From Promethearchaeota archaeon (GTDB lineage: Archaea > Asgardarchaeota > Lokiarchaeia > Sigyniarchaeales > SOKP01), in assembly GCA_016839555.1 (NCBI GenBank), contig JAEOUA010000007.1, positions 160,001-224,000 of the forward strand: a stretch of DNA of 64,000 nt. Reading direction: 5' to 3'. Below are positions 49,386 to 64,000 of this stretch, in pieces. Position numbers and translations under genes: made by a program. The first letter of the stretch is position 1; each line of letters opens with the position of its first letter. Below the pieces are notes generated by a model. That model was not told where the DNA came from. It saw only the letters and a list, made by a program, of their open reading frames with translations, and searched no databases.

Positions 49386-51815
49386 ATGGAAAAGAAATCA
49401 CTACATTTTGAAGATCATTTAATAAAAGTTATAGAGGCTAAAAAATTAGATTCCTCATTTAAAGTAAGATCCTACCATGAAAATTTGAAAATAATGGAAC
49501 AAAAAAATATACCTCAAAATTCTATTGAGGAAGTACTTAATGATTTCTTTTCTGAAAATTTAAAGGATATCTCAAAATCGACTAAAAAATCGATAACTCA
49601 AATAGTATATTATAAAGAGGATAGGCTAATAATATTAGAATCTAAACAAGCGAGGGAAGTGATCTGGAATCGAGAACAACTTGTAAAAAAATACGGTTGG
49701 TTCTTTTTTGTTACTAAAAAATTTGTACCCTCTGGAATTGCTGAAACAAAAAAAAGAAGTAAAAAGAAAGAGAAATCAAAAGAAAGAATTCTTTCAAAAG
49801 AAGAATATCAAGTGAATGGATTTCAATTTGATTTAGTTCAAAAAAAAAATATGCGACCCCTCTATCATACTAAGGAATACAATAGATATCTTCAAATTAT
49901 TAAGTTAAATAATATTATAACCCTCCCCATTAAAGAAACCTTAAACGACTTTTTCTTACAAAACAATTCAGTTCCAGAGAAAGAAAAAAATGCAATTAGA
50001 AAAATTATTTACTATGAAGAAGAAAAGGTTATTGTAGTTAAATCATTAATAGGAGATAAAATGTATGAGAATTTAGAAAATTTAGTAAGAAAATATGGAT
50101 GGTATTTTTATATAACAGGAGTGCCCGTTGGTAAAAGCAAAATTTCAATTGCTATTGATAAAATAGAAAAACGATATGATACTACTTATTTTGAAAATAC
50201 CTCTATATCGAAAAATTTAAAAAATAATGAAAAGATTCGCCTAATTCTTTATCCTATTGCATCAAGACCTAATCATAATTGCTTAATATTAGGGACTGGC
50301 CATCTAAATATATTACTAGATTGTGGTATTGAGGAAAAATCTTTAAAGGATATCGATGAATATCTTGAAAATGTAAATGATCTATTACAGAAAGATAAAC
50401 ATAAACAATTAATATTATCGAAAAGTGAAAATGAGCACTCTAATTTGGAAGATATAGACAAATTAAGAGAAATAAATTCACAAGATAAAGAAGAAATAAA
50501 AAAAGATGATGGAAATGAACTTCAATCCAATTGCTCACAGACTTTGACTAATGATAATATGGAGTTAGTTTTAAACAAGGAAAATTTTGAACCCAAAATC
50601 GATGCCGTCTTTCTTTCCCATTCCCACTATGATCATGTGTCAGGATTATTAGATTTTATTAAAGCTCATCCGGATATACCCGTTTTATGCTCCAGAATTA
50701 CATTGGATTTATATCTTTTAAGAGATTCTGATTTTTTAGATCAAAAACAAAAGGATGAAATTGAACAAGAAGAATATCGAAATGTGGTAAAGAATGTAAT
50801 TTATGTGGAGAATGGAGATAAAATAGAATTTAAGGAAAAGGATTGTTTTCTTTCTTTTTTTCATGCTGGTCATATGCCTGGCGCATTAATGATGCTCGTA
50901 AAGGTAAAGGATTATCGATTTCTTTATACCGGCGATTACACTTATTATGATATTACGCCTTTCGCTGGAACTAAAAGATTTTTGGATCAAATATCCCGTC
51001 CTTTAGATTTTCTTTTAATCGATGGATCAAGTGCTTATGAAGAGTTTGGAAATCCTTCTCAACATTTTCACAGTTTAATTCTATTTCTGGAACAGAAGGC
51101 AGAATATGGTAATAGTTCTTTAATCGGAGCAGACCCTTCAAGTTTAGCGATAAGTTTTATGCTAAAATTCTGGAGACATTTTAGAAAAAAGCAACTGCGA
51201 CATGATTATCAAAAAAGGCCAAACATTTATGTTGATATGATGGTAAGAAAAAATATTCAAGTTATTAATCATCGTTATAAATATATTTATGGGCCTATAT
51301 CAAGGCTTATCAGAGATAAAGCTAATCCATTTAATAGTATTAAGTTAAGATGGTTTGATCATGATGATTTAGATTTTTTGAAAAAGAAAAACTGTATCAT
51401 AATTTCTCATCCGGTAGATTTGAATTATGGAATTATTAAGAAAATTTTTAGTCGTATTGCGCCAAATCCTCATAATTTAGTATATCTGGCTGGTGGCATA
51501 AATGAGGAGCCGGGATATTCTTTGGTGAATCCTCCTGAAGATAAAAAGAATGAGCCCCCAATTGTAGAATTTTCAGAGTCTTGGAAAATTCCTTGTAGAG
51601 CCTTACTTGTTAATACTTTCGCTCCTCAAATCAAAATTAAGCTTCACGGGGATAAAACTCAACTTACTGAAATGATTAAAAATTTAGAGCCTAGAGAAAT
51701 ATGCTTTTTCCATGAAAGCCCCCGAAAATTGACAGAAGTTGCCGATTACGTCATTTCATTGGGTGTTCAGAAAGTTTCAATCCCTCAGGAAAAAAAATTA
51801 ATAATTTTAAATTAA
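49386..51815 (+). CDS. MBL-fold beta-CASP nuclease with duplicated N-terminal KH-like domains
   Basis: LLDCG, SHSHYDH, AGHMPG, YTGD, LHGD, FFHE; two copies of an LNDFF...I.YY.E...LV.KYGW repeat. Confidence 0.82.
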   Translation: MEKKSLHFEDHLIKVIEAKKLDSSFKVRSYHENLKIMEQKNIPQNSIEEVLNDFFSENLKDISKSTKKSITQIVYYKEDRLIILESKQAREVIWNREQLVKKYGWFFFVTKKFVPSGIAETKKRSKKKEKSKERILSKEEYQVNGFQFDLVQKKNMRPLYHTKEYNRYLQIIKLNNIITLPIKETLNDFFLQNNSVPEKEKNAIRKIIYYEEEKVIVVKSLIGDKMYENLENLVRKYGWYFYITGVPVGKSKISIAIDKIEKRYDTTYFENTSISKNLKNNEKIRLILYPIASRPNHNCLILGTGHLNILLDCGIEEKSLKDIDEYLENVNDLLQKDKHKQLILSKSENEHSNLEDIDKLREINSQDKEEIKKDDGNELQSNCSQTLTNDNMELVLNKENFEPKIDAVFLSHSHYDHVSGLLDFIKAHPDIPVLCSRITLDLYLLRDSDFLDQKQKDEIEQEEYRNVVKNVIYVENGDKIEFKEKDCFLSFFHAGHMPGALMMLVKVKDYRFLYTGDYTYYDITPFAGTKRFLDQISRPLDFLLIDGSSAYEEFGNPSQHFHSLILFLEQKAEYGNSSLIGADPSSLAISFMLKFWRHFRKKQLRHDYQKRPNIYVDMMVRKNIQVINHRYKYIYGPISRLIRDKANPFNSIKLRWFDHDDLDFLKKKNCIIISHPVDLNYGIIKKIFSRIAPNPHNLVYLAGGINEEPGYSLVNPPEDKKNEPPIVEFSESWKIPCRALLVNTFAPQIKIKLHGDKTQLTEMIKNLEPREICFFHESPRKLTEVADYVISLGVQKVSIPQEKKLIILN

Positions 51816-52513: not shown

Positions 52514-54355
52514 CTATTTCTTTTTATATTTCCGCTTTCTCTTACTCGATTTTGTTTTTATCCTCTTTCTTAACCTCTTTACAAGCTGAACCAATTTCTT
52601 TTTATCATGATAAAACCTGGTTGCCTTTTGATAATCGTTCACTTTTTTTTCATAATATAGTAAAAAGTCTTGCCAAAAATTTCCAGGTGTACATTTTATC
52701 GATAATCTTTTCAAAATTCCTTTACTCTCTTTTGGTTTTTTCAAAGAACACTCAATAATTTTCTCAAAAAGAAAGTGTCTAGCTTTTTTATACGCAATTT
52801 TTTTTTTCTCGTATATATCACTAACAGATACAAAGTCAATCCAATAGATTCTCCTCTTCTTTTCAGCCGTTTTCATTTCAAGCTTGATATCGATTGTTTG
52901 ATTCGCTAATCTTCTAATAAGAGAATAAACTGTTGCCTTTGATAATTTAGTACTTTTAATTAAATCTCTTTCTAATAATTCAATCGGATAGGGTTCACCC
53001 CGTCTAATATATTCACTTTTTAAAATTTTATGAATAATGATCATCGATTCATCTTCTTCGCTGACGGTTTCTTTTTGTAATCTTATAAACATAGATGTCT
53101 GTTGAGGTTTCATATAATATAGTATTAATGTAATTCCTAGAAATAGTATCATAAAAATTGATATAAGATATTTATCAGCCATTAAAATATCTCCTAAAAA
53201 TGTGATTTCTTGATTCAATACTAAATTTGTAAGAGCAAATCTCGTGAGAGTTTGAGCAGTAACACATCCGAGAAAAAATAAAATCAATCCGTCTCTTTTG
53301 AAAAACAAGATTGTCCAAGAATACGATTTCCCGAGTTTTATTATAACCCGATATAAAAATATTATAGAAACTATATATTCAATGATAAAAATATAAGTAA
53401 ATGCTGAACCGGTAGTACCAAATGCTGATTTTATTGCTGCGACTGTTTCAGGTCTTAAAATTAAAAAAATAGTTACTTGTAAAAGTTGGTAAAAAAAAAT
53501 AAAAAATACAATTAAAGAGAAGGTAAAATTATCAAACATACCCGCCCTTCTTGAGTCCAATTTACTTCTTGAAATTACTAACTCAAAGATAATAAAAACA
53601 AAAGTCATAATTAAACTGAAATATATAAAGGGCATAATAATACCCATTTCCGTATTATATACATTGATGGATTCGAAAGGATTATAAATACTAAAAAAAT
53701 CTAAAGTTAATATCACTAAAACCCCTCTATAAAAAAAAGATATAGTGACCAAAACAATAAGTATTATAAAAGGGATTATGAATATAAGAATTGATCTTGC
53801 TACAGAATATTTTTTAATAATTTTATATTCTATTTTTGTGGCAAATTTCCTCGAATACATATAGTATCTGCTAGATAAAAGGATAATCCAAATTAACGAT
53901 AAAGCCAATAGATAGCTTATATAATTGATAATTGATGACGTGAAAAAGAATAAGAAATAAAATCCAGCAATTATAATAGGAAAGATGACCAGCTGCTTAA
54001 TAGCTGTATATTTTTCAAACAAAAAATACCTCACACGGTCATTATTTAATATTAATGAAAGAGTAATAAAAAACGCACAAATAGCGTTTCCGAAATAGAA
54101 GGGATCTCCAAAAGTTAATGCTCTAACAATGAAATGATTGGGATCATCAATTCCCCATAATAATATAAATGAATAGAATATAAAGAAAATATAAAGACCT
54201 ATAAATTTTTTACTGAAAGCAAATGATTTGGGAGGTTTTTCGCCTCCTTTTGTATAGATTTGATGATATATATATTTATCTTTAAAATTATTAAATTTTT
54301 CATTAGTTTTTTCCTTAAATTGTTGAAGAGTAGACTTTTCTTTAGAAGATACCAT
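52514..54355 (-). CDS. Multi-pass membrane protein with soluble C-terminal HTH-like domain and basic tail
   Basis: About 10-11 hydrophobic segments, then LIKSTKLSKATVYSLIRRL and a K/R-rich end. Confidence 0.72.
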   Translation of the reverse strand: MVSSKEKSTLQQFKEKTNEKFNNFKDKYIYHQIYTKGGEKPPKSFAFSKKFIGLYIFFIFYSFILLWGIDDPNHFIVRALTFGDPFYFGNAICAFFITLSLILNNDRVRYFLFEKYTAIKQLVIFPIIIAGFYFLFFFTSSIINYISYLLALSLIWIILLSSRYYMYSRKFATKIEYKIIKKYSVARSILIFIIPFIILIVLVTISFFYRGVLVILTLDFFSIYNPFESINVYNTEMGIIMPFIYFSLIMTFVFIIFELVISRSKLDSRRAGMFDNFTFSLIVFFIFFYQLLQVTIFLILRPETVAAIKSAFGTTGSAFTYIFIIEYIVSIIFLYRVIIKLGKSYSWTILFFKRDGLILFFLGCVTAQTLTRFALTNLVLNQEITFLGDILMADKYLISIFMILFLGITLILYYMKPQQTSMFIRLQKETVSEEDESMIIIHKILKSEYIRRGEPYPIELLERDLIKSTKLSKATVYSLIRRLANQTIDIKLEMKTAEKKRRIYWIDFVSVSDIYEKKKIAYKKARHFLFEKIIECSLKKPKESKGILKRLSIKCTPGNFWQDFLLYYEKKVNDYQKATRFYHDKKKLVQLVKRLRKRIKTKSSKRKRKYKKK

Positions 54356-54558: not shown

Positions 54559-54846
54559 ATGAGAAGTATGTCACAAAATACGGATAATAAAGAAAATCTG
54601 ATTAATTTGGTTAAAGATGCTATCGCATTATTATGTGAAAAAAACATTTCTGAGGTTGTCATACTCTCCTCTTATAAAATTTCTTCTGTTTTAAACGATA
54701 ATTATGGAGTGGATATAAGAGTAGACAAGATAGGGCGGTTGTTGTCCCGTTTAGCTAAAAGTAACAAATTAAAAAGACTTAAAACAAACATTCCTAAATA
54801 TAAATTACATATTTCTCAATTACCTATGCTAAAATTTCAGTCGTGA
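54559..54846 (+). CDS. Small hypothetical protein, winged-helix-like
   Basis: LSSYKIS..L...YG..I...KIGRLLSRLAK...L.RL....PKYKL. Confidence 0.6.
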   Translation: MRSMSQNTDNKENLINLVKDAIALLCEKNISEVVILSSYKISSVLNDNYGVDIRVDKIGRLLSRLAKSNKLKRLKTNIPKYKLHISQLPMLKFQS

Positions 54847-54883: not shown

Positions 54884-56206
54884 TTATAAATTTTCAATCT
54901 TTTTTATTTTTTCTTCAATTCTATTTTTAATCTCCGAAAACGTGTTTTCTATTAATTCAATTTCTGAGTATAAATTATTGAACAATTCCATTATCTCAAT
55001 ATTATTTTTCTCTGCCCTTTCCTGTAATTTGACTATTATTTCTTCGAAATTATTTTTTATTTGTTCGGGCATTGTTATAATTGATTCATTAAGTATTTGA
55101 GCTTTCTCTGCTAAATTTTTCATCTGATTTTTAGAAAATTCACTCATTTCACTAAATTTTTTCATAATCTCTTGAAAATCCCGATAATTATTAGTGACTT
55201 GATTTTTTATGGATTCTATTAGTGATTCCTTAATCATGGTATATTTTCTCTTAGTGTCTTCAATAATTTTGTTAAAATCTTGAATTCGAGTATCGATAGA
55301 GCTAGATAATGATTCTTCAAAAATATTAAAAATAATTTTGAATTCCTCTTCGAATACTTTTTTATAATTGATTAAACCCCTAGAAATATTTTCTTTTATT
55401 TGAATGATACTCTCAAGTAATTTTTGATTTCCACTTAGTGTAGCGCTATTGAATTCTTCAGTCCATCTTATGATTTGCTGATTCATAATTCTCTCAACAG
55501 TATCCCCAAATTCGACATTAGCTTCCTTAAAATTAGAAAAGTAAAAAAGTTCTTCTACCATTTTTTCTTTTGTTTTAGGTATTTCTTGTAAATCTTTTTG
55601 CTTATCTTCAGATAGTTCTATTATTTCTTTAATTAAAATAGGATCTTCTTTTTGATAATCTTCTACAAATTTTTGAACCCATTTAAAATAATCCAAACTA
55701 TTGGGTTTTTCAATTTCATAGGGTAATTCATGATATTGACTATTGATACCTTGATGAAAATCATCTAATGTATATATCTTTAAGCCAAAATTATCATTTT
55801 TATCAATTAAATTAGGATCAAAAGCCACGCAAAATCCCAGAGGATTATCTTCATTTTGAAACTGAAGAAGATTATTAATATCTCTTTCACTTAATGATAA
55901 TCCATTATCAACATGTGAAATATAATTTCCAATGCCTTTCAATCCAGAGGCATTATATTTTTCTTTAATTTGAGCAATCTTTTCAAGGAGATAATTATCA
56001 GTGTTAAGGTTAATACCTTTGCCATGAGTAATTGGAATAGCGTTATTTATAATTATATCATTATTCTCAGATATATTTCCAATACATATTCCTAATACAT
56101 CATACCTCCGTCTAAGAATTATATTGCCAAATCTAAGTAGATGAGTGATCATATTTCTAAACGCCTCCTTCTTAATTATAACACGATTTTGTTTATTATT
56201 ATTCAT
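54884..56206 (-). CDS. MPN/JAB-domain protein, predicted inactive (MPN-), with long helical tail
   Basis: Paralogue of 56211-57761; JAMM motif degenerate: DVLG, GNYISH...SERD. Confidence 0.8.
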   Translation of the reverse strand: MNNNKQNRVIIKKEAFRNMITHLLRFGNIILRRRYDVLGICIGNISENNDIIINNAIPITHGKGINLNTDNYLLEKIAQIKEKYNASGLKGIGNYISHVDNGLSLSERDINNLLQFQNEDNPLGFCVAFDPNLIDKNDNFGLKIYTLDDFHQGINSQYHELPYEIEKPNSLDYFKWVQKFVEDYQKEDPILIKEIIELSEDKQKDLQEIPKTKEKMVEELFYFSNFKEANVEFGDTVERIMNQQIIRWTEEFNSATLSGNQKLLESIIQIKENISRGLINYKKVFEEEFKIIFNIFEESLSSSIDTRIQDFNKIIEDTKRKYTMIKESLIESIKNQVTNNYRDFQEIMKKFSEMSEFSKNQMKNLAEKAQILNESIITMPEQIKNNFEEIIVKLQERAEKNNIEIMELFNNLYSEIELIENTFSEIKNRIEEKIKKIENL

Positions 56207-56210
56207 TGTT

Positions 56211-57761
56211 TTAATCCTCCCTCGTTTTCAATTTTTTTATCTTCTCGGATAATTTATTTTTATCATTTTGAAGTGTTTCGATTTTTTTGTTTAAATCTTT
56301 TACTTCATTTTTGATTTTTATAATCTCTTCTTGAAGAATTTTATTCTCCTCTTTAGATCTTGATAAATTATTATTTAGTTCTTCTTTTTCTTTTTTTAAG
56401 TTTTTAATTTTCATCTCAAAAGAATCTAATGTATTCTCTGAAATTGGAAATGATTCTTTTAATAAGTTCTGTAATGTGTTAACTTTTTCTTTAAATAATT
56501 TCATTTTCTCTTTAAATTCAATATTTAGCTTATCTTGATAAGATAAACTTTCATTAAGAATATTATTTTGAAGTTTTCCTAATGTTCCTCTAAATTCTTC
56601 CAATTTATTATTTTGAGCTTGTATTAGTTCTAATATTTTTGAATTTAATTCATTTAATTGTTGAAAATTATTTCTTCCAATATCAAATAAAGAATCATAT
56701 TCTAAAGCGGATTCTTTATATAAATTGTTTAAGGTAATGATAACCTTTTCTTGCATTTCTTTTTTAAAATTATCCAGTAATTCTTTACTTTTTATAATTT
56801 TTTTGTCTAATAATTCAAGTTTATCATTAATATAAAAATCTAAATTATCCAAATCCAATCTTAAATCTTCTTTAATGGATTCTAGAAGGACAGTCATATT
56901 ATTATTGATTGAATTCCTAATCAAAATGATATTCTCTTTCATTAATAAATTAAGAGTTATAATTTCCTCAATTAATTCATTACTCCAATTATTATAAAAA
57001 TTAGTAATTGGTCGGATTGAAGTTTCTATTAATTGAAAAATGCTTTTTTGTAAATGGGTAATTAAATATTCCGTATTTATATTTGGTTTATTTGCGATTA
57101 AATCTTCATCACTAGGAACGGAAACATTCCCAAATATGTCTATCTTCTCATTTAATTCAAATATGGGAGGCTCTTTAGTTTGAACACTATTAATTAGATA
57201 AATAATTTTTCTATAAAATTCAAGACTATTAGGAGGGTCTATAATCGTTTTGACTTCATGATAATGTGATGCATCTCCTTTGTAAGGATCATCTAACCTA
57301 AAAGTTCGAAATCCAGGATCATTTGGATTTTCTAAGTAAGTATGATCAAAAACAATTCCAATAGCACTGGGATTTGCGGTCTGCCATCCAAGCTGATTTA
57401 TTATATCAGTACCTGAAAAGAAAATTTTAAGTCCTGGATGAGAATGGTACCAACCAACACTAAACCAGCCTTTTTTAGCAAATTGCTCATCTACCGTTGA
57501 AAATTTTATATAATCCTCTGGGGCAAACCGTACCTCAATTGATCCTCCATGAGAAACGGGTACAACATTCTCAATTATAACATCTTTAATTTCTCCTTCT
57601 CCTTCAAGATAACCAATTAAAATTCCCATAACTTCTTTAAATTGGTCATAATTACGATTTTTTGAACCAAATCGTAAGACATGAACTAACATTTTATAAT
57701 AGGCTTCTGGTTTAATTCTTACTATAGACTCATCAGAGATATTAGATTTATGTGTTTTCAA
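56211..57761 (-). CDS. MPN+/JAMM isopeptidase (Rpn11/CSN5-like) with long coiled-coil tail
   Basis: KMLVH, EVMGILIG, VGWYHSHPGLKIFFSGTDI; heptad-rich C-terminus. Confidence 0.88.
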   Translation of the reverse strand: MKTHKSNISDESIVRIKPEAYYKMLVHVLRFGSKNRNYDQFKEVMGILIGYLEGEGEIKDVIIENVVPVSHGGSIEVRFAPEDYIKFSTVDEQFAKKGWFSVGWYHSHPGLKIFFSGTDIINQLGWQTANPSAIGIVFDHTYLENPNDPGFRTFRLDDPYKGDASHYHEVKTIIDPPNSLEFYRKIIYLINSVQTKEPPIFELNEKIDIFGNVSVPSDEDLIANKPNINTEYLITHLQKSIFQLIETSIRPITNFYNNWSNELIEEIITLNLLMKENIILIRNSINNNMTVLLESIKEDLRLDLDNLDFYINDKLELLDKKIIKSKELLDNFKKEMQEKVIITLNNLYKESALEYDSLFDIGRNNFQQLNELNSKILELIQAQNNKLEEFRGTLGKLQNNILNESLSYQDKLNIEFKEKMKLFKEKVNTLQNLLKESFPISENTLDSFEMKIKNLKKEKEELNNNLSRSKEENKILQEEIIKIKNEVKDLNKKIETLQNDKNKLSEKIKKLKTRED

Positions 57762-57948: not shown

Positions 57949-59118
57949 CTATTTTTTTAGTTTTAAAATCCTTCTTTTATTGAATGAAATTGCTAAATGA
58001 AAACTCAATTCTGAAATCAAATATTTTAAACTAAAATATTTTCCTACATTTTGATATATAATTTTCAAACCTATAAAGAAAAAAATAATTATTATTAAAG
58101 AGATAAAAAATCCTTGACTAATAGTAAATTTTTGATAGAGTAAGGGAAATAGAAATTCATGAAGTATTAATATAGTAAGGGAATAATAAGAAAAATAGAA
58201 AAAGAATTTATATTCTCGCTTAAAATTAAAATTAATCCTTATTTCAATACTTAGCAAAATCAGAAAAAATATAAAATTAGTGCCTAATGAATATAATAAC
58301 CAACTAAATGAATTTCGTGAAAAATTATCGATGGGAATGAAAAGAAGAGAGATAATTATCAATAATGCGCTAATTAATAATAATGGATATATATTTGATC
58401 GAATGAATTCTTTATTAGTAATTTTTGTATTTTCATCGATAATTTTTTCATATATTATTTCTCCTAAAACATTTCCAAGCAAGAAAAACGGAAAAAAGCC
58501 AAGAATCGGGGTAAATAAAAATCCATTATAAAAAATAAAATAAACAAAATCTATTACACTTGTTATTACTATTTGATCACTCGGACTAATTAATATTTCT
58601 TTTGGGATAAAATAAAAAAAGATACCATAAAGAATTAAGAAAATGCTTGCTATCAAGACTCTAATATTTTTTTTATATTTCATCAGGGGCCACGCTAAAA
58701 TTATCGATACCGCAAGTGTTTGGAATATATTCCACGACCATAAATTTCCTATATATCCCCGATAAAGAAAAGCTCGAAAATTATAATAAAAAAACCCAAT
58801 TAAAAACAAAAACAATGCTTGTAAGAAATATTTTAAACGTATTTCTTTATAATAGTCCTTCTGATTAAAATTTGGTGCATTTTTTGCTTTTATACTTTTC
58901 ATTTGATAAGATAACATGATACTGATTCCGGAAACAAACACAAAACCCTCAGCTTCAGGGCTAACATAAAGAATAATTACGGATAATAAATGAAAAAAAC
59001 TGTTAGTTGATAAACTAGGAGCGCCTCCAGGTATTCCCCACATCCACGTGTGAAGTAAAATCATATAAATAATTACGTAACCACGAAAAATATCAATACA
59101 TTTTAACCTTGTTTTCAT
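57949..59118 (-). CDS. DUF1624/HGSNAT-like membrane acyltransferase, copy 1
   Basis: RL.CIDIFRG...MILLH; FVFVSGIS; multiple TM segments. Confidence 0.75.
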   Translation of the reverse strand: MKTRLKCIDIFRGYVIIYMILLHTWMWGIPGGAPSLSTNSFFHLLSVIILYVSPEAEGFVFVSGISIMLSYQMKSIKAKNAPNFNQKDYYKEIRLKYFLQALFLFLIGFFYYNFRAFLYRGYIGNLWSWNIFQTLAVSIILAWPLMKYKKNIRVLIASIFLILYGIFFYFIPKEILISPSDQIVITSVIDFVYFIFYNGFLFTPILGFFPFFLLGNVLGEIIYEKIIDENTKITNKEFIRSNIYPLLLISALLIIISLLFIPIDNFSRNSFSWLLYSLGTNFIFFLILLSIEIRINFNFKREYKFFFYFSYYSLTILILHEFLFPLLYQKFTISQGFFISLIIIIFFFIGLKIIYQNVGKYFSLKYLISELSFHLAISFNKRRILKLKK

Positions 59119-59250
59119 GTTTCTTCTAATTTTTTTATTTTTTTAAAATATGATCTTTAAAAATTAAGATTATTTTTTGGGAGAAAAAAGCCGTTTTATT
59201 GCTCTAATATATTTATATTTAAAAAGAAATTCATTTTAAATTCTTTAATA

Positions 59251-60381
59251 TTAATGTTCTGCTATAATTTTGTTGCTAAGATAAGTTGCTAATCGTGCGA
59301 TTTGTATTTTTAAGCTGAAATAGGGACCTACCTTTATATACATAATTTTTAGAAGAATAAAAAATCCCAATAAAATCATTATTGATACTATTAATCCTAT
59401 AAGAGGAGTAAATCTATCATACACGAGATAAAATAGAAAATGTTGCATTAAATATGCGGTCAATGAATAATATGAAAAATAATAAAAGAATTTATATTCT
59501 CTCTTAAATTTAAAGATTTCTAATTTTTCAATAGAAAACAAAAACAAAAAAAGAACAAGATCCGCTCCTAAAGAATATAATAACCATGAATATGTATTTA
59601 TTGTAAAAATATCGGCTGGAAGAAAAAATGCAATAACCATTAATGGAATACTAATTAAAAGGATTGGTTTTGCGAGTGATTTTATAAATTTTTTATCTGG
59701 AATTTTAGTTTCTTCGTTAATTGATTTTTCATATAAAATTTCACCTAATACATTCCCAAAAAGAAAAAATGGGAAGTATAATAATATTGGACAGAAAATA
59801 AACCCATTATAGAAAATAAAATAAAAGAAACTTAAAGGATCTGATATTATGAAGCGATCTCCGGGGCCACTTAACATTTCCGGGTCAATAAAGGCAAATA
59901 AAACATAAAATAAAATTAATAGACTAATTCCAATTATAATTTTTATTATTTTTTTAAGCTTTCTTAAGGGCCATATTAATAACATAGATACGGCAAGCGT
60001 TTGAAAGATAGTCCATAACCATAAATCTTCAAATCGCTTCCAAAAAAGTAATTGTTCTAAATTATAAGAAAATACTCCAATAAACAAAACTATTAATGCT
60101 CTCAGAAAATGTCTTAAGCGGAGTTGTTTATAATCATAATTATAAGAACTCTTATTTTTTATGGCCTGAATTCTTTTTTGATAAGATAGTGTAAAGCTTA
60201 CACCAGAAATCAATATAAATCCTTCTGCTTCTGGTGAAATATAATAGAGTGGTCTGGTTATTATTATTAGAATTATATTGGGAGTATATCCAGATGCCAT
60301 CCCCCATGACCATGTATGTGCAACTATTAAATATGCTATTATGAAACCCCTATAAATATCAATACTTTTTAATCTTTCCAT
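59251..60381 (-). CDS. DUF1624/HGSNAT-like membrane acyltransferase, copy 2
   Basis: RLKSIDIYRG...IVAH; shares SPEAEGF, IFQTLAVS and YFSYYSLT with copy 1. Confidence 0.75.
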   Translation of the reverse strand: MERLKSIDIYRGFIIAYLIVAHTWSWGMASGYTPNIILIIITRPLYYISPEAEGFILISGVSFTLSYQKRIQAIKNKSSYNYDYKQLRLRHFLRALIVLFIGVFSYNLEQLLFWKRFEDLWLWTIFQTLAVSMLLIWPLRKLKKIIKIIIGISLLILFYVLFAFIDPEMLSGPGDRFIISDPLSFFYFIFYNGFIFCPILLYFPFFLFGNVLGEILYEKSINEETKIPDKKFIKSLAKPILLISIPLMVIAFFLPADIFTINTYSWLLYSLGADLVLFLFLFSIEKLEIFKFKREYKFFYYFSYYSLTAYLMQHFLFYLVYDRFTPLIGLIVSIMILLGFFILLKIMYIKVGPYFSLKIQIARLATYLSNKIIAEH

Positions 60382-60637: not shown

Positions 60638-61231
60638 TTAAGTGAGTTTTTTTCCGCAATATGGGCAATACTTAAATTCAAGATCGCGGCCACAATAAGG
60701 ACAATATTTTGATGGCCTTTTGGATTGAGCAACCTCAGTTTGCCCTTTTTGGGGCTCCTTTTGCATTGTTGGTACCGCTGAAGGTATTTCTGGTAAGATC
60801 CTTTTTGATCCCGCCATTTCTGTTTTTTCTTTTTTACGGGTTTTCATTCTTTCCTGGAAAATCTTGCGTTTTTCTTCTTCGCTCGTTGTATGTTTTGTTT
60901 CAAATTTTTCCTGTGTTTTAGAGCTAATCGCTTTTATCTCTTTTTTTTCTAATTTTTGTTTAGCCTGATTCATTAACGCTTGGGCAGATTTCATAACTTG
61001 ATGGGGGTTGATATTGGGAATAGCTGAGGCTTGTAATACCCATCCTACAATATAATTTATATTGGGGGTACTTTGCCCCTCATCCAATTCATAAACTTTA
61101 GATGCTAATACATTATTCCCTTTTACTAATCTACTGGCCCATTGATTATTAATAAGGCCCAATTGGATTTTATAGGAGGTTCCGGAAACCCCTAATTGGT
61201 TTGTTAATGGTTCAAACTCTCCTTCTACCAA
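60638..61231 (-). CDS. Hypothetical protein with C-terminal zinc ribbon
   Basis: Globular N-terminus, charged linker, YCPYCG-x5-YCPYCG; TTG start. Confidence 0.75.
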   Translation of the reverse strand: MVEGEFEPLTNQLGVSGTSYKIQLGLINNQWASRLVKGNNVLASKVYELDEGQSTPNINYIVGWVLQASAIPNINPHQVMKSAQALMNQAKQKLEKKEIKAISSKTQEKFETKHTTSEEEKRKIFQERMKTRKKEKTEMAGSKRILPEIPSAVPTMQKEPQKGQTEVAQSKRPSKYCPYCGRDLEFKYCPYCGKKLT

Positions 61232-61502: not shown

Positions 61503-62456
61503 ATGACTATTATAATTCCTAAAAAAGCCTATAACACGATTGTAGCCTCCTCAGTAAGATATGCTAATTCTCGCTTCCCTCAAGATGATTGGTTAGAGGT
61601 CTATGGAGTATTCACGGGGAAAATAGAGAAAGATGATTTAGTTATCTCAGCAGCATATCCCATTACCCACCAAGAAAAAAAACCAGAAGATATAATAGAT
61701 AAAGTTTATTGGTCTGATGAAGATTATGAATCTTTTAGTATAATTGATGATGAAGCCTTTTCGAAAGGACTTTTTACCGTAGGATGGTGGCATTCTCACC
61801 CTGGTTTTAAAGTAATGATGTCTCAGCTTGACGTAAAAACAACATTATCTTATCAACAAAATAATCCGAAAGCAATTTCTTTAGTTTTCAACCCAAATCG
61901 TTTAATACGTCAAATTGAACTACCCTATAAGAAAGGAGACCCCGTAAAGCAGTTAAAAAATGATCCTGGTTTTAAAATTTTTCGATTAGATGATGTAAAC
62001 AAAGGAATTGAAGCATCATATCATGAAGAGATATATGAAATACAAGGTTATGAAAATATGGAACAATTAATAAAGGAAACCCAGAATTTTATTATTAATG
62101 TGACAAATTTTTTTCCAAAAAACAATATATTCGACCATTATCAGAGAATTGTTGATAAAAAAATAAATGAATTAAATTCTAAATTAATGGGTACAGAATC
62201 TTACTTAAAAACTCTAATTCAAAAAGGAGAAGCACACCGAACTAAAGAAGTATTAAATAATCAGATAAAAGATATTCGAAAATATGTTGCTCAGACTTAT
62301 ATCGCTATTGAAAATATCAGAGAATTTATGGATTATTTAGAATTTAAGGAAAGGGATAAGGTAATCACGAAAGTCCAACAAATTCTAGTTCAATGGGATG
62401 ATGCTGCTTCAAATTCTTCAAAAAAATTTGATGAAATGGCAAAGAATTACACATGA
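61503..62456 (+). CDS. MPN+/JAMM isopeptidase with helical C-terminal extension
   Basis: EVYGVFTG, VGWWHSHPGFKVMMSQLD; DPGFKIFRLDD shared with 56211-57761. Confidence 0.88.
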   Translation: MTIIIPKKAYNTIVASSVRYANSRFPQDDWLEVYGVFTGKIEKDDLVISAAYPITHQEKKPEDIIDKVYWSDEDYESFSIIDDEAFSKGLFTVGWWHSHPGFKVMMSQLDVKTTLSYQQNNPKAISLVFNPNRLIRQIELPYKKGDPVKQLKNDPGFKIFRLDDVNKGIEASYHEEIYEIQGYENMEQLIKETQNFIINVTNFFPKNNIFDHYQRIVDKKINELNSKLMGTESYLKTLIQKGEAHRTKEVLNNQIKDIRKYVAQTYIAIENIREFMDYLEFKERDKVITKVQQILVQWDDAASNSSKKFDEMAKNYT

Positions 62457-62595: not shown

Positions 62596-64000
62596 TTGAT
62601 TTTTCGAAAGAACTTCCCCTTTACGGCGATTCTTGGACAAGAAAAAATGAAAAGGGCTTTAATATTAAATGTTATTGATCCTCAAATTGGCGGCGTACTC
62701 TTGCAAGGTCATCAAGGAACAGGAAAATCTACAGCGGTACGCTCGCTTGTTGAAGTTATGCCTCAAATTGAGGTAGTTGTGGGATGCCCCTTTTCTTGTG
62801 ATCCCAACTCTGATATTGATGAATTATGTGTGGAATGCCAAGAAAAGAAGGAAAAAGGAGAACTTCAAACAAAAAAGCGAGGAATGAAGCTGGTTAACCT
62901 TCCTCTTGGAGTTACAGAAGATATGGTGTGTGGTTCTCTTTCAATTGATAAAGTTCTTGCTGAAGGAATATCTGAATTGCATCCAGGACTCTTGGCGAAA
63001 GCAAATCGTGGTATTCTCTATATTGATGAAATAAATCTTCTCCAAGATCATATAGTAGATACATTATTAGATGCATCTGCTTCTGGTATTAATATCATTG
63101 AAAGAGAAGGAATTTCAGTGACACATCCCGCAAGATTTATATTAGTAGGAAGCATGAATCCAGAGGAAGGAGAATTAAGGCCACAGATCGCAGACCGTCT
63201 CGGACTTGAAGTAAAGATAGAAGCTCCCCGTGATCCCGAACTACGGGCAGAGATTACCAAACGCGTTATTGATTTTAATGATACTCCAAGGGAATTTATA
63301 GAGCGCAATGAAGAAGAACAAAAAAATTTAAAGGAACGCATCAGAAAAGCAAGAAAAATCGTAAAAGATATAAAAATTCCCAGTAATGTTTATGAACTAG
63401 TTTCTAAAATAGTAAATGAATTAGAGATTTTTTCTCAGAGGGCAGATATCACATTTATTCGATGTGCACGTGCTAATGCGGCTTTTAATTTGAGAAACGT
63501 GATTAGTGCAGAAGATTTAGATTTTGCAATGGATTTAGTATTTGAACATAGAATAAAATCATTACATTATGAAATGACTCCCAAAGAAATTAAAGATAAA
63601 TTAAAAGAAGTTTATGGAAAAATTCAAGAAGCTTACGAAGATCCCAATATTTATCAGCCGAATGATGAAACTGAAGGGCCTTTAAAGCATTCTGATGAGC
63701 CTCAAAAAGAATTTAAACGACAATCTTTAGACCCAGATAAAGTAGATATTCCAGAATCAGAGGAGCAAAAATTCCCACCTCCTAAATATGAAGATAAAAG
63801 AAAAAGAGATGCCAGTCCAGCTGGCGGTTGGAAAGTAAAAGATATCCCCTCAGATGAGGACTTTAATTTAACATATGATGATTTCAATACCATGCCTTTT
63901 ATCTACAGAATGGAGAAAAAAATGAATTCAATATTAGATGGAATACGTAAGCAAAGAAAAATATCAGATTATGGTGGGAGAGGAATTGGAAGAAGAATCA
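62596..64000 (+). CDS. Mg/Co-chelatase subunit ChlI/ChlD-like AAA+ ATPase (3'-truncated by window edge; absent from ORF track)
   Basis: TTG 62596 after AGGTG; translates FPFTAILGQE, GHQGTGKST, PGLLAKANRGILYIDEINLL, GSMNPEEGELRPQIADR, then an acidic/Pro linker; open to the window end. Confidence 0.88.
   Translation, partial: MIFRKNFPFTAILGQEKMKRALILNVIDPQIGGVLLQGHQGTGKSTAVRSLVEVMPQIEVVVGCPFSCDPNSDIDELCVECQEKKEKGELQTKKRGMKLVNLPLGVTEDMVCGSLSIDKVLAEGISELHPGLLAKANRGILYIDEINLLQDHIVDTLLDASASGINIIEREGISVTHPARFILVGSMNPEEGELRPQIADRLGLEVKIEAPRDPELRAEITKRVIDFNDTPREFIERNEEEQKNLKERIRKARKIVKDIKIPSNVYELVSKIVNELEIFSQRADITFIRCARANAAFNLRNVISAEDLDFAMDLVFEHRIKSLHYEMTPKEIKDKLKEVYGKIQEAYEDPNIYQPNDETEGPLKHSDEPQKEFKRQSLDPDKVDIPESEEQKFPPPKYEDKRKRDASPAGGWKVKDIPSDEDFNLTYDDFNTMPFIYRMEKKMNSILDGIRKQRKISDYGGRGIGRRI

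Follow-up and report, generated by a model that had tools for sequence, protein, structure and literature searches.

A coupled pair of long-stalked MPN-domain proteins in Lokiarchaeia: a probable enzyme and pseudo-enzyme heterodimer arising apart from its eukaryotic counterparts

Two adjacent genes, here called A and B, lie on the minus strand of a 64,000-nucleotide stretch of a Promethearchaeota archaeon genome (contig JAEOUA010000007.1; the whole stretch is referred to as the window), and each encodes an MPN domain followed by a long helix. A carries a complete JAMM active site, and B has lost one of its zinc ligands. We consider it probable that the two proteins form an MPN+/MPN− heterodimer on a long stalk, a design that would be convergent and repeatedly arising in these archaea and not the ancestor of the eukaryotic pairs. 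The sequence comparisons that carry this reading are the pairing and coupling of the genes, their catalytic asymmetry, the repeated loss of the B active site, the conservation of a predicted interface, the matched periodicity of the stalks and the independence of the pair from Rpn11 and CSN5.

The gene pair and the catalytic state of its two proteins

The features on which the argument depends are the following.

56211..57761, minus strand: gene A, 516 amino acids from a TTG start; MPN+/JAMM domain, linker and one long helix
57174..57728, minus strand: MPN domain of A, about residues 12-196; conserved Ins-1 (HGGSIEVxF) and predicted interface helices H1 (18-31) and H4 (180-192)
57633..57635, minus strand: catalytic Glu43 of A, invariant in 132 sequences
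57405..57446, minus strand: JAMM motif of A, H106-x-H108-x7-S116-x2-D119, from the sequence and the homologue alignment
56223..57038, minus strand: predicted helical stalk of A, residues 242-513; hendecad at 242-320, periodicity of about 3.6 at 320-440, heptad at 440-513
54884..56206, minus strand: gene B, 440 amino acids; degenerate MPN domain, acidic linker and one long helix
55649..56185, minus strand: MPN domain of B, about residues 8-186; helices predicted to face A, H1 (KEAFRNMITHxLRF) and H4 (YFKWVQKFVEDxQK; E182 invariant)
56099-56101, minus strand: Asp36 of B in place of the catalytic Glu, from alignment to A
55880..55921, minus strand: degenerate JAMM motif of B, I96-S-H98-x7-S106-x2-D109, first zinc His lost
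54890..55528, minus strand: predicted helical stalk of B, residues 227-439; hendecad to about 310, then periodicity of about 3.6; in register with A
56216..56220, minus strand: GGAGG Shine-Dalgarno sequence of B, within the last codons of A, 9 nucleotides 5' of the B ATG

A reading made earlier from the sequence only had proposed a coupled pair of paralogues, and the coordinates agree: the genes share an orientation, only 4 bp (56207-56210) separate them, and the ribosome-binding site of B lies inside the end of A. The alignment that it described over about 190 amino acids extends to 201, at 31% identity (E 3e-21), and both proteins exceed the 22.5-bit cut-off of the Pfam JAB family PF01398 (A, 52.2; B, 25.2). 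A match to UPF0172 was taken to reflect the common MPN fold and nothing further. The partnership is also conserved among relatives, where A immediately precedes B in 60 of 61 distinct two-gene loci, the gap lies between −35 and +17 nucleotides in 59 of the 61, and a Shine-Dalgarno-like word occurs within 20 nucleotides upstream of B in 50 of the 61 pairs, a count that has no shuffle control. A scan for sigma-70 promoters was uninformative, the host being an AT-rich archaeon.

The full JAMM motif described for A is present, with E43, H106, H108, S116 and D119 set in the EVMG and GWYHSHPG context typical of Rpn11 and CSN5. All five catalytic residues are kept in 120 of 120 homologues. Ins-1 of A is strongly conserved as well. 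By its MPN/JAB domain and complete motif, A is a JAMM/MPN+ metalloprotease at the level of sequence. Its nearest relatives among solved structures are CsRpn11, Rpn11 and CSN5, the best match being CsRpn11 of Caldiarchaeum subterraneum (JAMM-3 group; PDB 6FJU/6FJV; E 1.3e-9). CsRpn11 shares the five catalytic residues and Ins-1 with A, but it is a protein of about 200 amino acids that is monomeric in solution and active alone, and its gene lies in a ubiquitin operon.

B, as encoded here, is an MPN− pseudo-enzyme, an MPN fold with I96 in place of the first zinc-binding His. Its AlphaFold2 model resembles chains of Rpn11, CSN5 and BRCC36 in fold (top Foldseek matches 4ocm and 4o8x, E about 1e-10). 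Both substitutions noted previously, E to D and HSH to ISH, can be seen, although they differ in standing: the former is confined to this genome and the nearest orthologues retain the Glu (EIHKD, EIHRD), so that the lesion held in common with relatives is H to I. Loss of the first His is shared by a 20-member B clade (support 97) that includes orthologues only about 34% identical, and the loss in this B is therefore old.

The wider family does not show a fixed division into MPN+ and MPN− subunits, contrary to what the sequence-only reading had supposed. The JAMM motif of B is intact in 56 of 119 homologues and in 12 of 61 genome pairs, and the remaining homologues display about 30 different lesion patterns; loss is thus not family-wide, as it is for Rpn8, CSN6 and Abraxas. 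One of these patterns, E to Q with the zinc-binding His/His/Asp retained, is seen in no fewer than three distinct B clades (L103, L105, L051, L109-L115, L120, L127, L131, L138 and P0122). The SOKP01 clade has an E-to-Q B, and in G024 the site of B is stripped altogether. To avoid circularity, the state of B was mapped onto the gene-A tree, a procedure that presumes a common history of A and B; it required seven changes, at least four of them forced by starred branches. When regain was excluded (Dollo), the best gene-A tree called for 12 zinc-ligand losses and bootstrap trees for 9-13, or 12-18 when any catalytic change was counted. A single clade of lost copies, equivalent to one loss, was rejected on the gene-A tree (p-AU 1e-46), and the B-domain tree displays the same interleaving of intact and lost copies. 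On these reconstructions the MPN− state of B arose independently many times, through about ten losses. Some of the most basal B genes are intact, from which it follows that the ancestor had two active subunits. Intact motifs in B orthologues had been anticipated as a mark of recent decay; such orthologues do exist, but the 20-member clade and the repeated losses do not fit decay that is recent.

Two further observations concern degenerate MPN domains in related genomes. Small, fully degenerate MPN genes (about 200-250 amino acids) are found at L041:946-2163, L059:1447-2839, L073:2136-3353 and L069:6970-7635, in genomes (G015, G039, G009, G037) where B is still intact. Many of them form tandem arrays, and some immediately precede A; they would represent a second MPN− lineage, which may be the older one. 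In a protein of 1398 amino acids (P0356), an intact MPN domain precedes a degenerate MPN-like one, and a HerA-type ATPase makes up the C terminus; this protein may be an MPN+/MPN− pair fused into a single chain.

The predicted complex and its stalks

Direct binding of A to B, through the MPN heads and the stalk, is supported as a prediction. A model of A(8-330) with B(4-320) gave an ipSAE of 0.81, against 0.00 for the best of three controls, among which A-A and B-B were not included. In the calibration of the ipSAE mark, 58 of 80 solved complexes attained it, as did 2 of 110 mismatched pairs; the calibration applies roughly, since our own alignments were used. Agreement between runs extended to 60% of contacts or more, and the partner pLDDT was 74 or higher. 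In the model, H1 and H4 of each head pack together in a pseudo-symmetric interface, followed by a parallel, in-register coiled coil that pairs residues 245-318 of A with 237-307 of B. As we picture it, A and B would be co-translated and assemble as a heterodimer or a higher A:B multiple, with the heads held in a pseudo-symmetric bundle by H1 and H4.

The surface predicted to face A is what B copies lacking zinc ligands preserve best. Among them, catalytic positions have a mean pairwise identity of 0.37, Ins-1 one of 0.32 and the rest of the domain one of 0.43, compared with 0.59 for the predicted A-facing positions, and an excess of 0.59 over 0.43 was reached in none of 2000 permutations. Intact B proteins give 1.0, 0.59, 0.56 and 0.64, respectively. 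Consensus residues differ between A and B on both interface helices; for example, E182 is present in 100% of B sequences, and A has N, E or D at the equivalent position. From these comparisons, this B appears to retain a surface under selection. CsRpn11 and Rpn11 use Ins-1 to position the ubiquitin tail (PMC6043591), and the decay of Ins-1 in zinc-less B indicates that this B has probably lost substrate handling along with catalysis. After duplication, each copy would have gained its own interface signature, and the catalytic site of B would have become dispensable, decaying independently in many lineages by E to Q with zinc ligands kept, by His loss as here, or completely, with B retained as a structural partner.

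Long helical tails were correctly anticipated for both proteins, but heptad-rich is a mistaken description of the greater part of them. In the AlphaFold2 models the MPN domain is joined through a loose linker to a single continuous helix (A 242-513, B 227-439), which makes up more than half of each protein. Hydrophobic periodicity is of the hendecad type (3.66-3.70) in the proximal part and about 3.6 distally, the switch falling at equivalent places in A and B, and a heptad period (3.5) occurs only in the last ~70 residues of A, past the end of B. At 1.5 Å per residue the stalks would measure 30-40 nm, with a shared part of about 30 nm in which the tails would form a parallel, in-register coiled coil, nearly straight or right-handed, overhung by the heptad end of A. 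One genome (G039) has a duplicate of the pair at a new location (L060), in which each tail is about 100 amino acids shorter; a frameshift was rejected as the cause because the flanking genes leave no room for one. The matched periodicity and this shared shortening are independent sequence hints that agree with the A-B model. The tails also matched apolipoprotein, SMC and Rad50, but these hits were dismissed as generic to amphipathic helices, being far below family cut-offs where any exist, and a membrane anchor in either protein was rejected, since the maximum 19-residue hydropathy is 1.36 for A and 0.72 for B.

The peripheral stalk of the A/V-ATPases offers a precedent. Its E and G subunits form a two-chain parallel coiled coil built of hendecad repeats and bearing a globular head (PMC3293630), an architecture like that proposed for A and B, although no homology is shown. 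By analogy with this two-chain stalk, a 1:1 stoichiometry of A and B is plausible.

Origin relative to known MPN systems

Whether the split into enzyme and pseudo-enzyme is ancestral or convergent had been left as a choice, and the trees favour convergence. Of the 84 MPN domains in the mixture-model tree that we built to place A and B, the eukaryotic ones came from Rpn11 and CSN5 only (CSN5 being identified by motif and tree position), without Rpn8, CSN6, eIF3f, Abraxas or BRCC36. A is monophyletic (99/98), and a wider clade (100/97) unites it with B and a further two short Lokiarchaeial paralogues; this clade is nested in an expansion of Loki type (99/90), sister to the group containing the JAMM protein of this genome's ubiquitin operon (99/93). 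Eukaryotic Rpn11 and CSN5 fall outside the expansion, and constraining A to group with them was rejected (p-AU 0.011). A and B come out as sisters in this tree, and these placements suggest that both stem from the tandem duplication of a single stalked JAMM protease within one Lokiarchaeia order.

That the pair is instead the ancestor, and hence the orthologue, of Rpn11-Rpn8, CSN5-CSN6 or BRCC36-Abraxas is in our judgement very improbable. The fold and the modelled H1/H4 packing of the heads are indeed alike, and the B profile does match Rpn8, at 26 bits; yet it matches Rpn11 and CSN5 far better, at 50 bits, and the tree topology, the rejected constraint and the intact basal B genes all tell against such descent. 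Neither A nor B matched RPN11_C, CSN5_C, BRCC36_C (PF18110) or MitMem_reg at E ≤ 0.1, and nothing in the genome exceeded the cut-off for PF13012. The distribution is also narrow. Within the family, 24 of 25 genomes have a B orthologue, two other families of the order add a few A-B pairs, and all 61 distinct loci fall within this one order of Lokiarchaeia. A search of 125 further Asgard genomes at E ≤ 1e-40 gave no B orthologue, and in the cultured strain MK-D1 the A profile gave matches at the level of the MPN domain and no A orthologue.

The pair belongs to none of the three eukaryotic systems, and the likeness is one of working arrangement only. With Rpn11-Rpn8 and CSN5-CSN6 it shares the MPN fold, the combination of an active and an inactive paralogue, and a predicted H1/H4 head interface that is broadly like the one described for Rpn8-Rpn11 (PMC6043591). 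It differs from them in its independent origin, in activity loss that is not fixed, in that no PCI subunits were found, and in having a single stalk of 210-270 amino acids in place of short bundle helices. BRCC36-Abraxas and BRCC36-ABRO1 (KIAA0157), the cores of BRCA1-A and BRISC, resemble the pair in having a coiled coil after each MPN domain and no PCI proteins (PMC7692841), but their heads meet by β-sheets (PMC7692841) and not by H1 and H4 as in our model, and the A-B stalk is several times longer and of hendecad type. We infer that A-B ancestry is also separate from that of BRCC36, which is absent from the tree. An MPN+/MPN− organization has been stated not to be known in archaea (PMC6043591), and we found no description of the A-B pair in the literature on Asgard MPN/JAMM proteins, most subscription papers lying outside the reach of the search.

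Genomic setting, possible function and significance

The pair usually sits in a conserved block. An AAA-vWA chelatase-like gene and an MPN+ paralogue, C, lie on the opposite strand; a zinc-ribbon gene comes next, followed by A and B themselves, and after these come a small convergent gene and one for a polytopic membrane protein. A small winged-helix-like protein is among the conserved neighbours. In the window the members of the block are:

62596-64000, plus strand (full gene L161:1597-3804): AAA+ chelatase-like protein, 735 amino acids, C-terminal vWA-like domain; syntenic in 34 of 60 related loci
61503..62456, plus strand: MPN+ paralogue C, 317 amino acids, intact JAMM motif, short helical tail; divergent neighbour in 43 of 60 loci
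60638..61231, minus strand: zinc-ribbon protein, 197 amino acids, C-terminal zinc ribbon; upstream of A; 50 of 60 loci
54559-54846, plus strand: basic protein of 95 amino acids, downstream of B; conserved in 47 of 60 loci
52514-54355, minus strand: polytopic membrane protein, downstream of B, no Pfam match; 44 of 60 loci

The 197-residue zinc-ribbon protein is a candidate third partner of A and B. Between its gene and A lie two tandem membrane genes resembling HGSNAT/acyltransferase-3 (57949-60381, minus strand); we set them aside as a local insertion, matched in 1 of 60 related loci. An open reading frame of 1006 amino acids in a related locus (L097:2077-5097) opens with a C-type MPN domain and is apparently paralogue C fused to the downstream AAA-vWA gene. 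Farther off, positions 49386-51815 (plus strand) of the window encode an 809-residue nuclease of the β-CASP metallo-β-lactamase family, with a long N-terminal extension containing two similar segments.

The cell has modifiers on which A could act. Genes for E1, E2 and ubiquitin-like proteins with AGG and AGGV ends occur in its genome, among them an AGGV precursor at G000:C4 about 257100, and a cluster of ubiquitin-like, E1, E2 and JAMM genes lies just left of the window (G000:C6:156500-159980; L159, L001). Elsewhere, at L157:1486-1740 and L158:1438-1698, there are near-identical stand-alone ubiquitin-like genes, one ending in AGG and the other in AGGV, with one residue to remove. We lean towards deconjugation of these ubiquitin-like modifiers as the most likely job of A, which would be a working zinc isopeptidase cutting, in the likeliest case, after their C-terminal Gly-Gly. 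In eukaryotes it is the MPN− partner that switches on the MPN+ subunit (PMC7692841, PMC4140821). Ubiquitin as the substrate, a similar activation of A by B and an anchoring target for the stalk are putative here.

Several points weigh against a convergent, stalked heterodimer that acts on ubiquitin. Near relatives of a true partner also pass the test applied to the A-B model, and the modelled head interface may have been carried over from solved Rpn11-Rpn8 structures known to the predictor. H1 and H4 also form the crystal dimer of CsRpn11, which is nevertheless monomeric in solution (PMC6043591), and the interface-conservation figures carry no control for burial or self-association. No PCI domain (PF01399, E ≤ 0.001) was found in this 92%-complete genome, a search that divergent winged-helix proteins could escape. 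Finally, the ubiquitin operon has a JAMM gene of its own (C6:159175), separate from A and B, whose product groups with Heimdall/Hodarchaeal Rpn11-like proteins; that protein could do the housekeeping processing, and A need not be the ubiquitin-processing enzyme.

Three other accounts have to be weighed against these points. A and B might be co-expressed while each builds its own homo-oligomeric rod, B serving as a separate ubiquitin-binding reader or scaffold; the pseudo-symmetric interface makes homodimers geometrically possible, and the E-to-Q copies of several B clades, with their zinc ligands kept, would suit substrate binding. We think this unlikely, given the class-specific interface signatures, the near-universal tight coupling of the genes, the joint shortening of both tails in L060 and the decay of the substrate-binding loop Ins-1 in zinc-less B, this lineage included. 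Alternatively, the heterodimer may be real but serve no part in ubiquitin removal, with A cutting another modifier or protein and the rod acting mainly as a structural tether to a membrane or machine. The position of the genes outside a ubiquitin operon with its own JAMM, a stalk that exceeds half of each protein, and zinc-ribbon, winged-helix-like and polytopic membrane neighbours all suit such a role, to which we assign a similarly low probability because the closest solved relatives of A are CsRpn11, Rpn11 and CSN5, its Ins-1 is strongly conserved, and the A/B clade is sister to the group containing the Asgard ubiquitin-operon JAMM. The idea that B is a redundant duplicate becoming a pseudogene is scarcely credible. 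B does evolve more quickly than A and varies without constraint at its catalytic residues, but its frame stays open at 422-471 amino acids in 56 of 57 complete pairs, it is kept at 25-40% identity and in nearly every genome of the family, and its predicted interface is conserved.

Beyond the convergent heterodimer that we prefer, a bolder version can be entertained, though doubtful at present: an obligate MPN heterodimer in which all stages of pseudo-enzyme evolution are still living (both subunits active, an E-to-Q zinc-bound trap, His lost, fully stripped), B is an allosteric activator, and a 30-nm hendecad stalk tethers the heads to a zinc-ribbon or membrane partner, as an independent Asgard machine akin to a proto-signalosome.

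To our knowledge, all eukaryotic MPN+/MPN− pairs, those of the lid, signalosome, eIF3 and BRISC, had taken full shape before the last eukaryotic common ancestor, and their origin consequently cannot be observed. In the Lokiarchaeial family A is always intact, and B appears to have been lost about ten times yet remains intact in some relatives, so that the eukaryote-like design of an enzyme with a dead twin would be independent here and visible in progress. An Asgard gene pair that looks like a eukaryotic complex can be convergent and not ancestral, which calls for caution in reading such likenesses. With intact, half-lost and dead B genes in related genomes, the family would provide natural replicates of the shift from two active subunits to an enzyme and a pseudo-enzyme, making it testable whether obligate pairing and activation come before or after the loss of catalysis.

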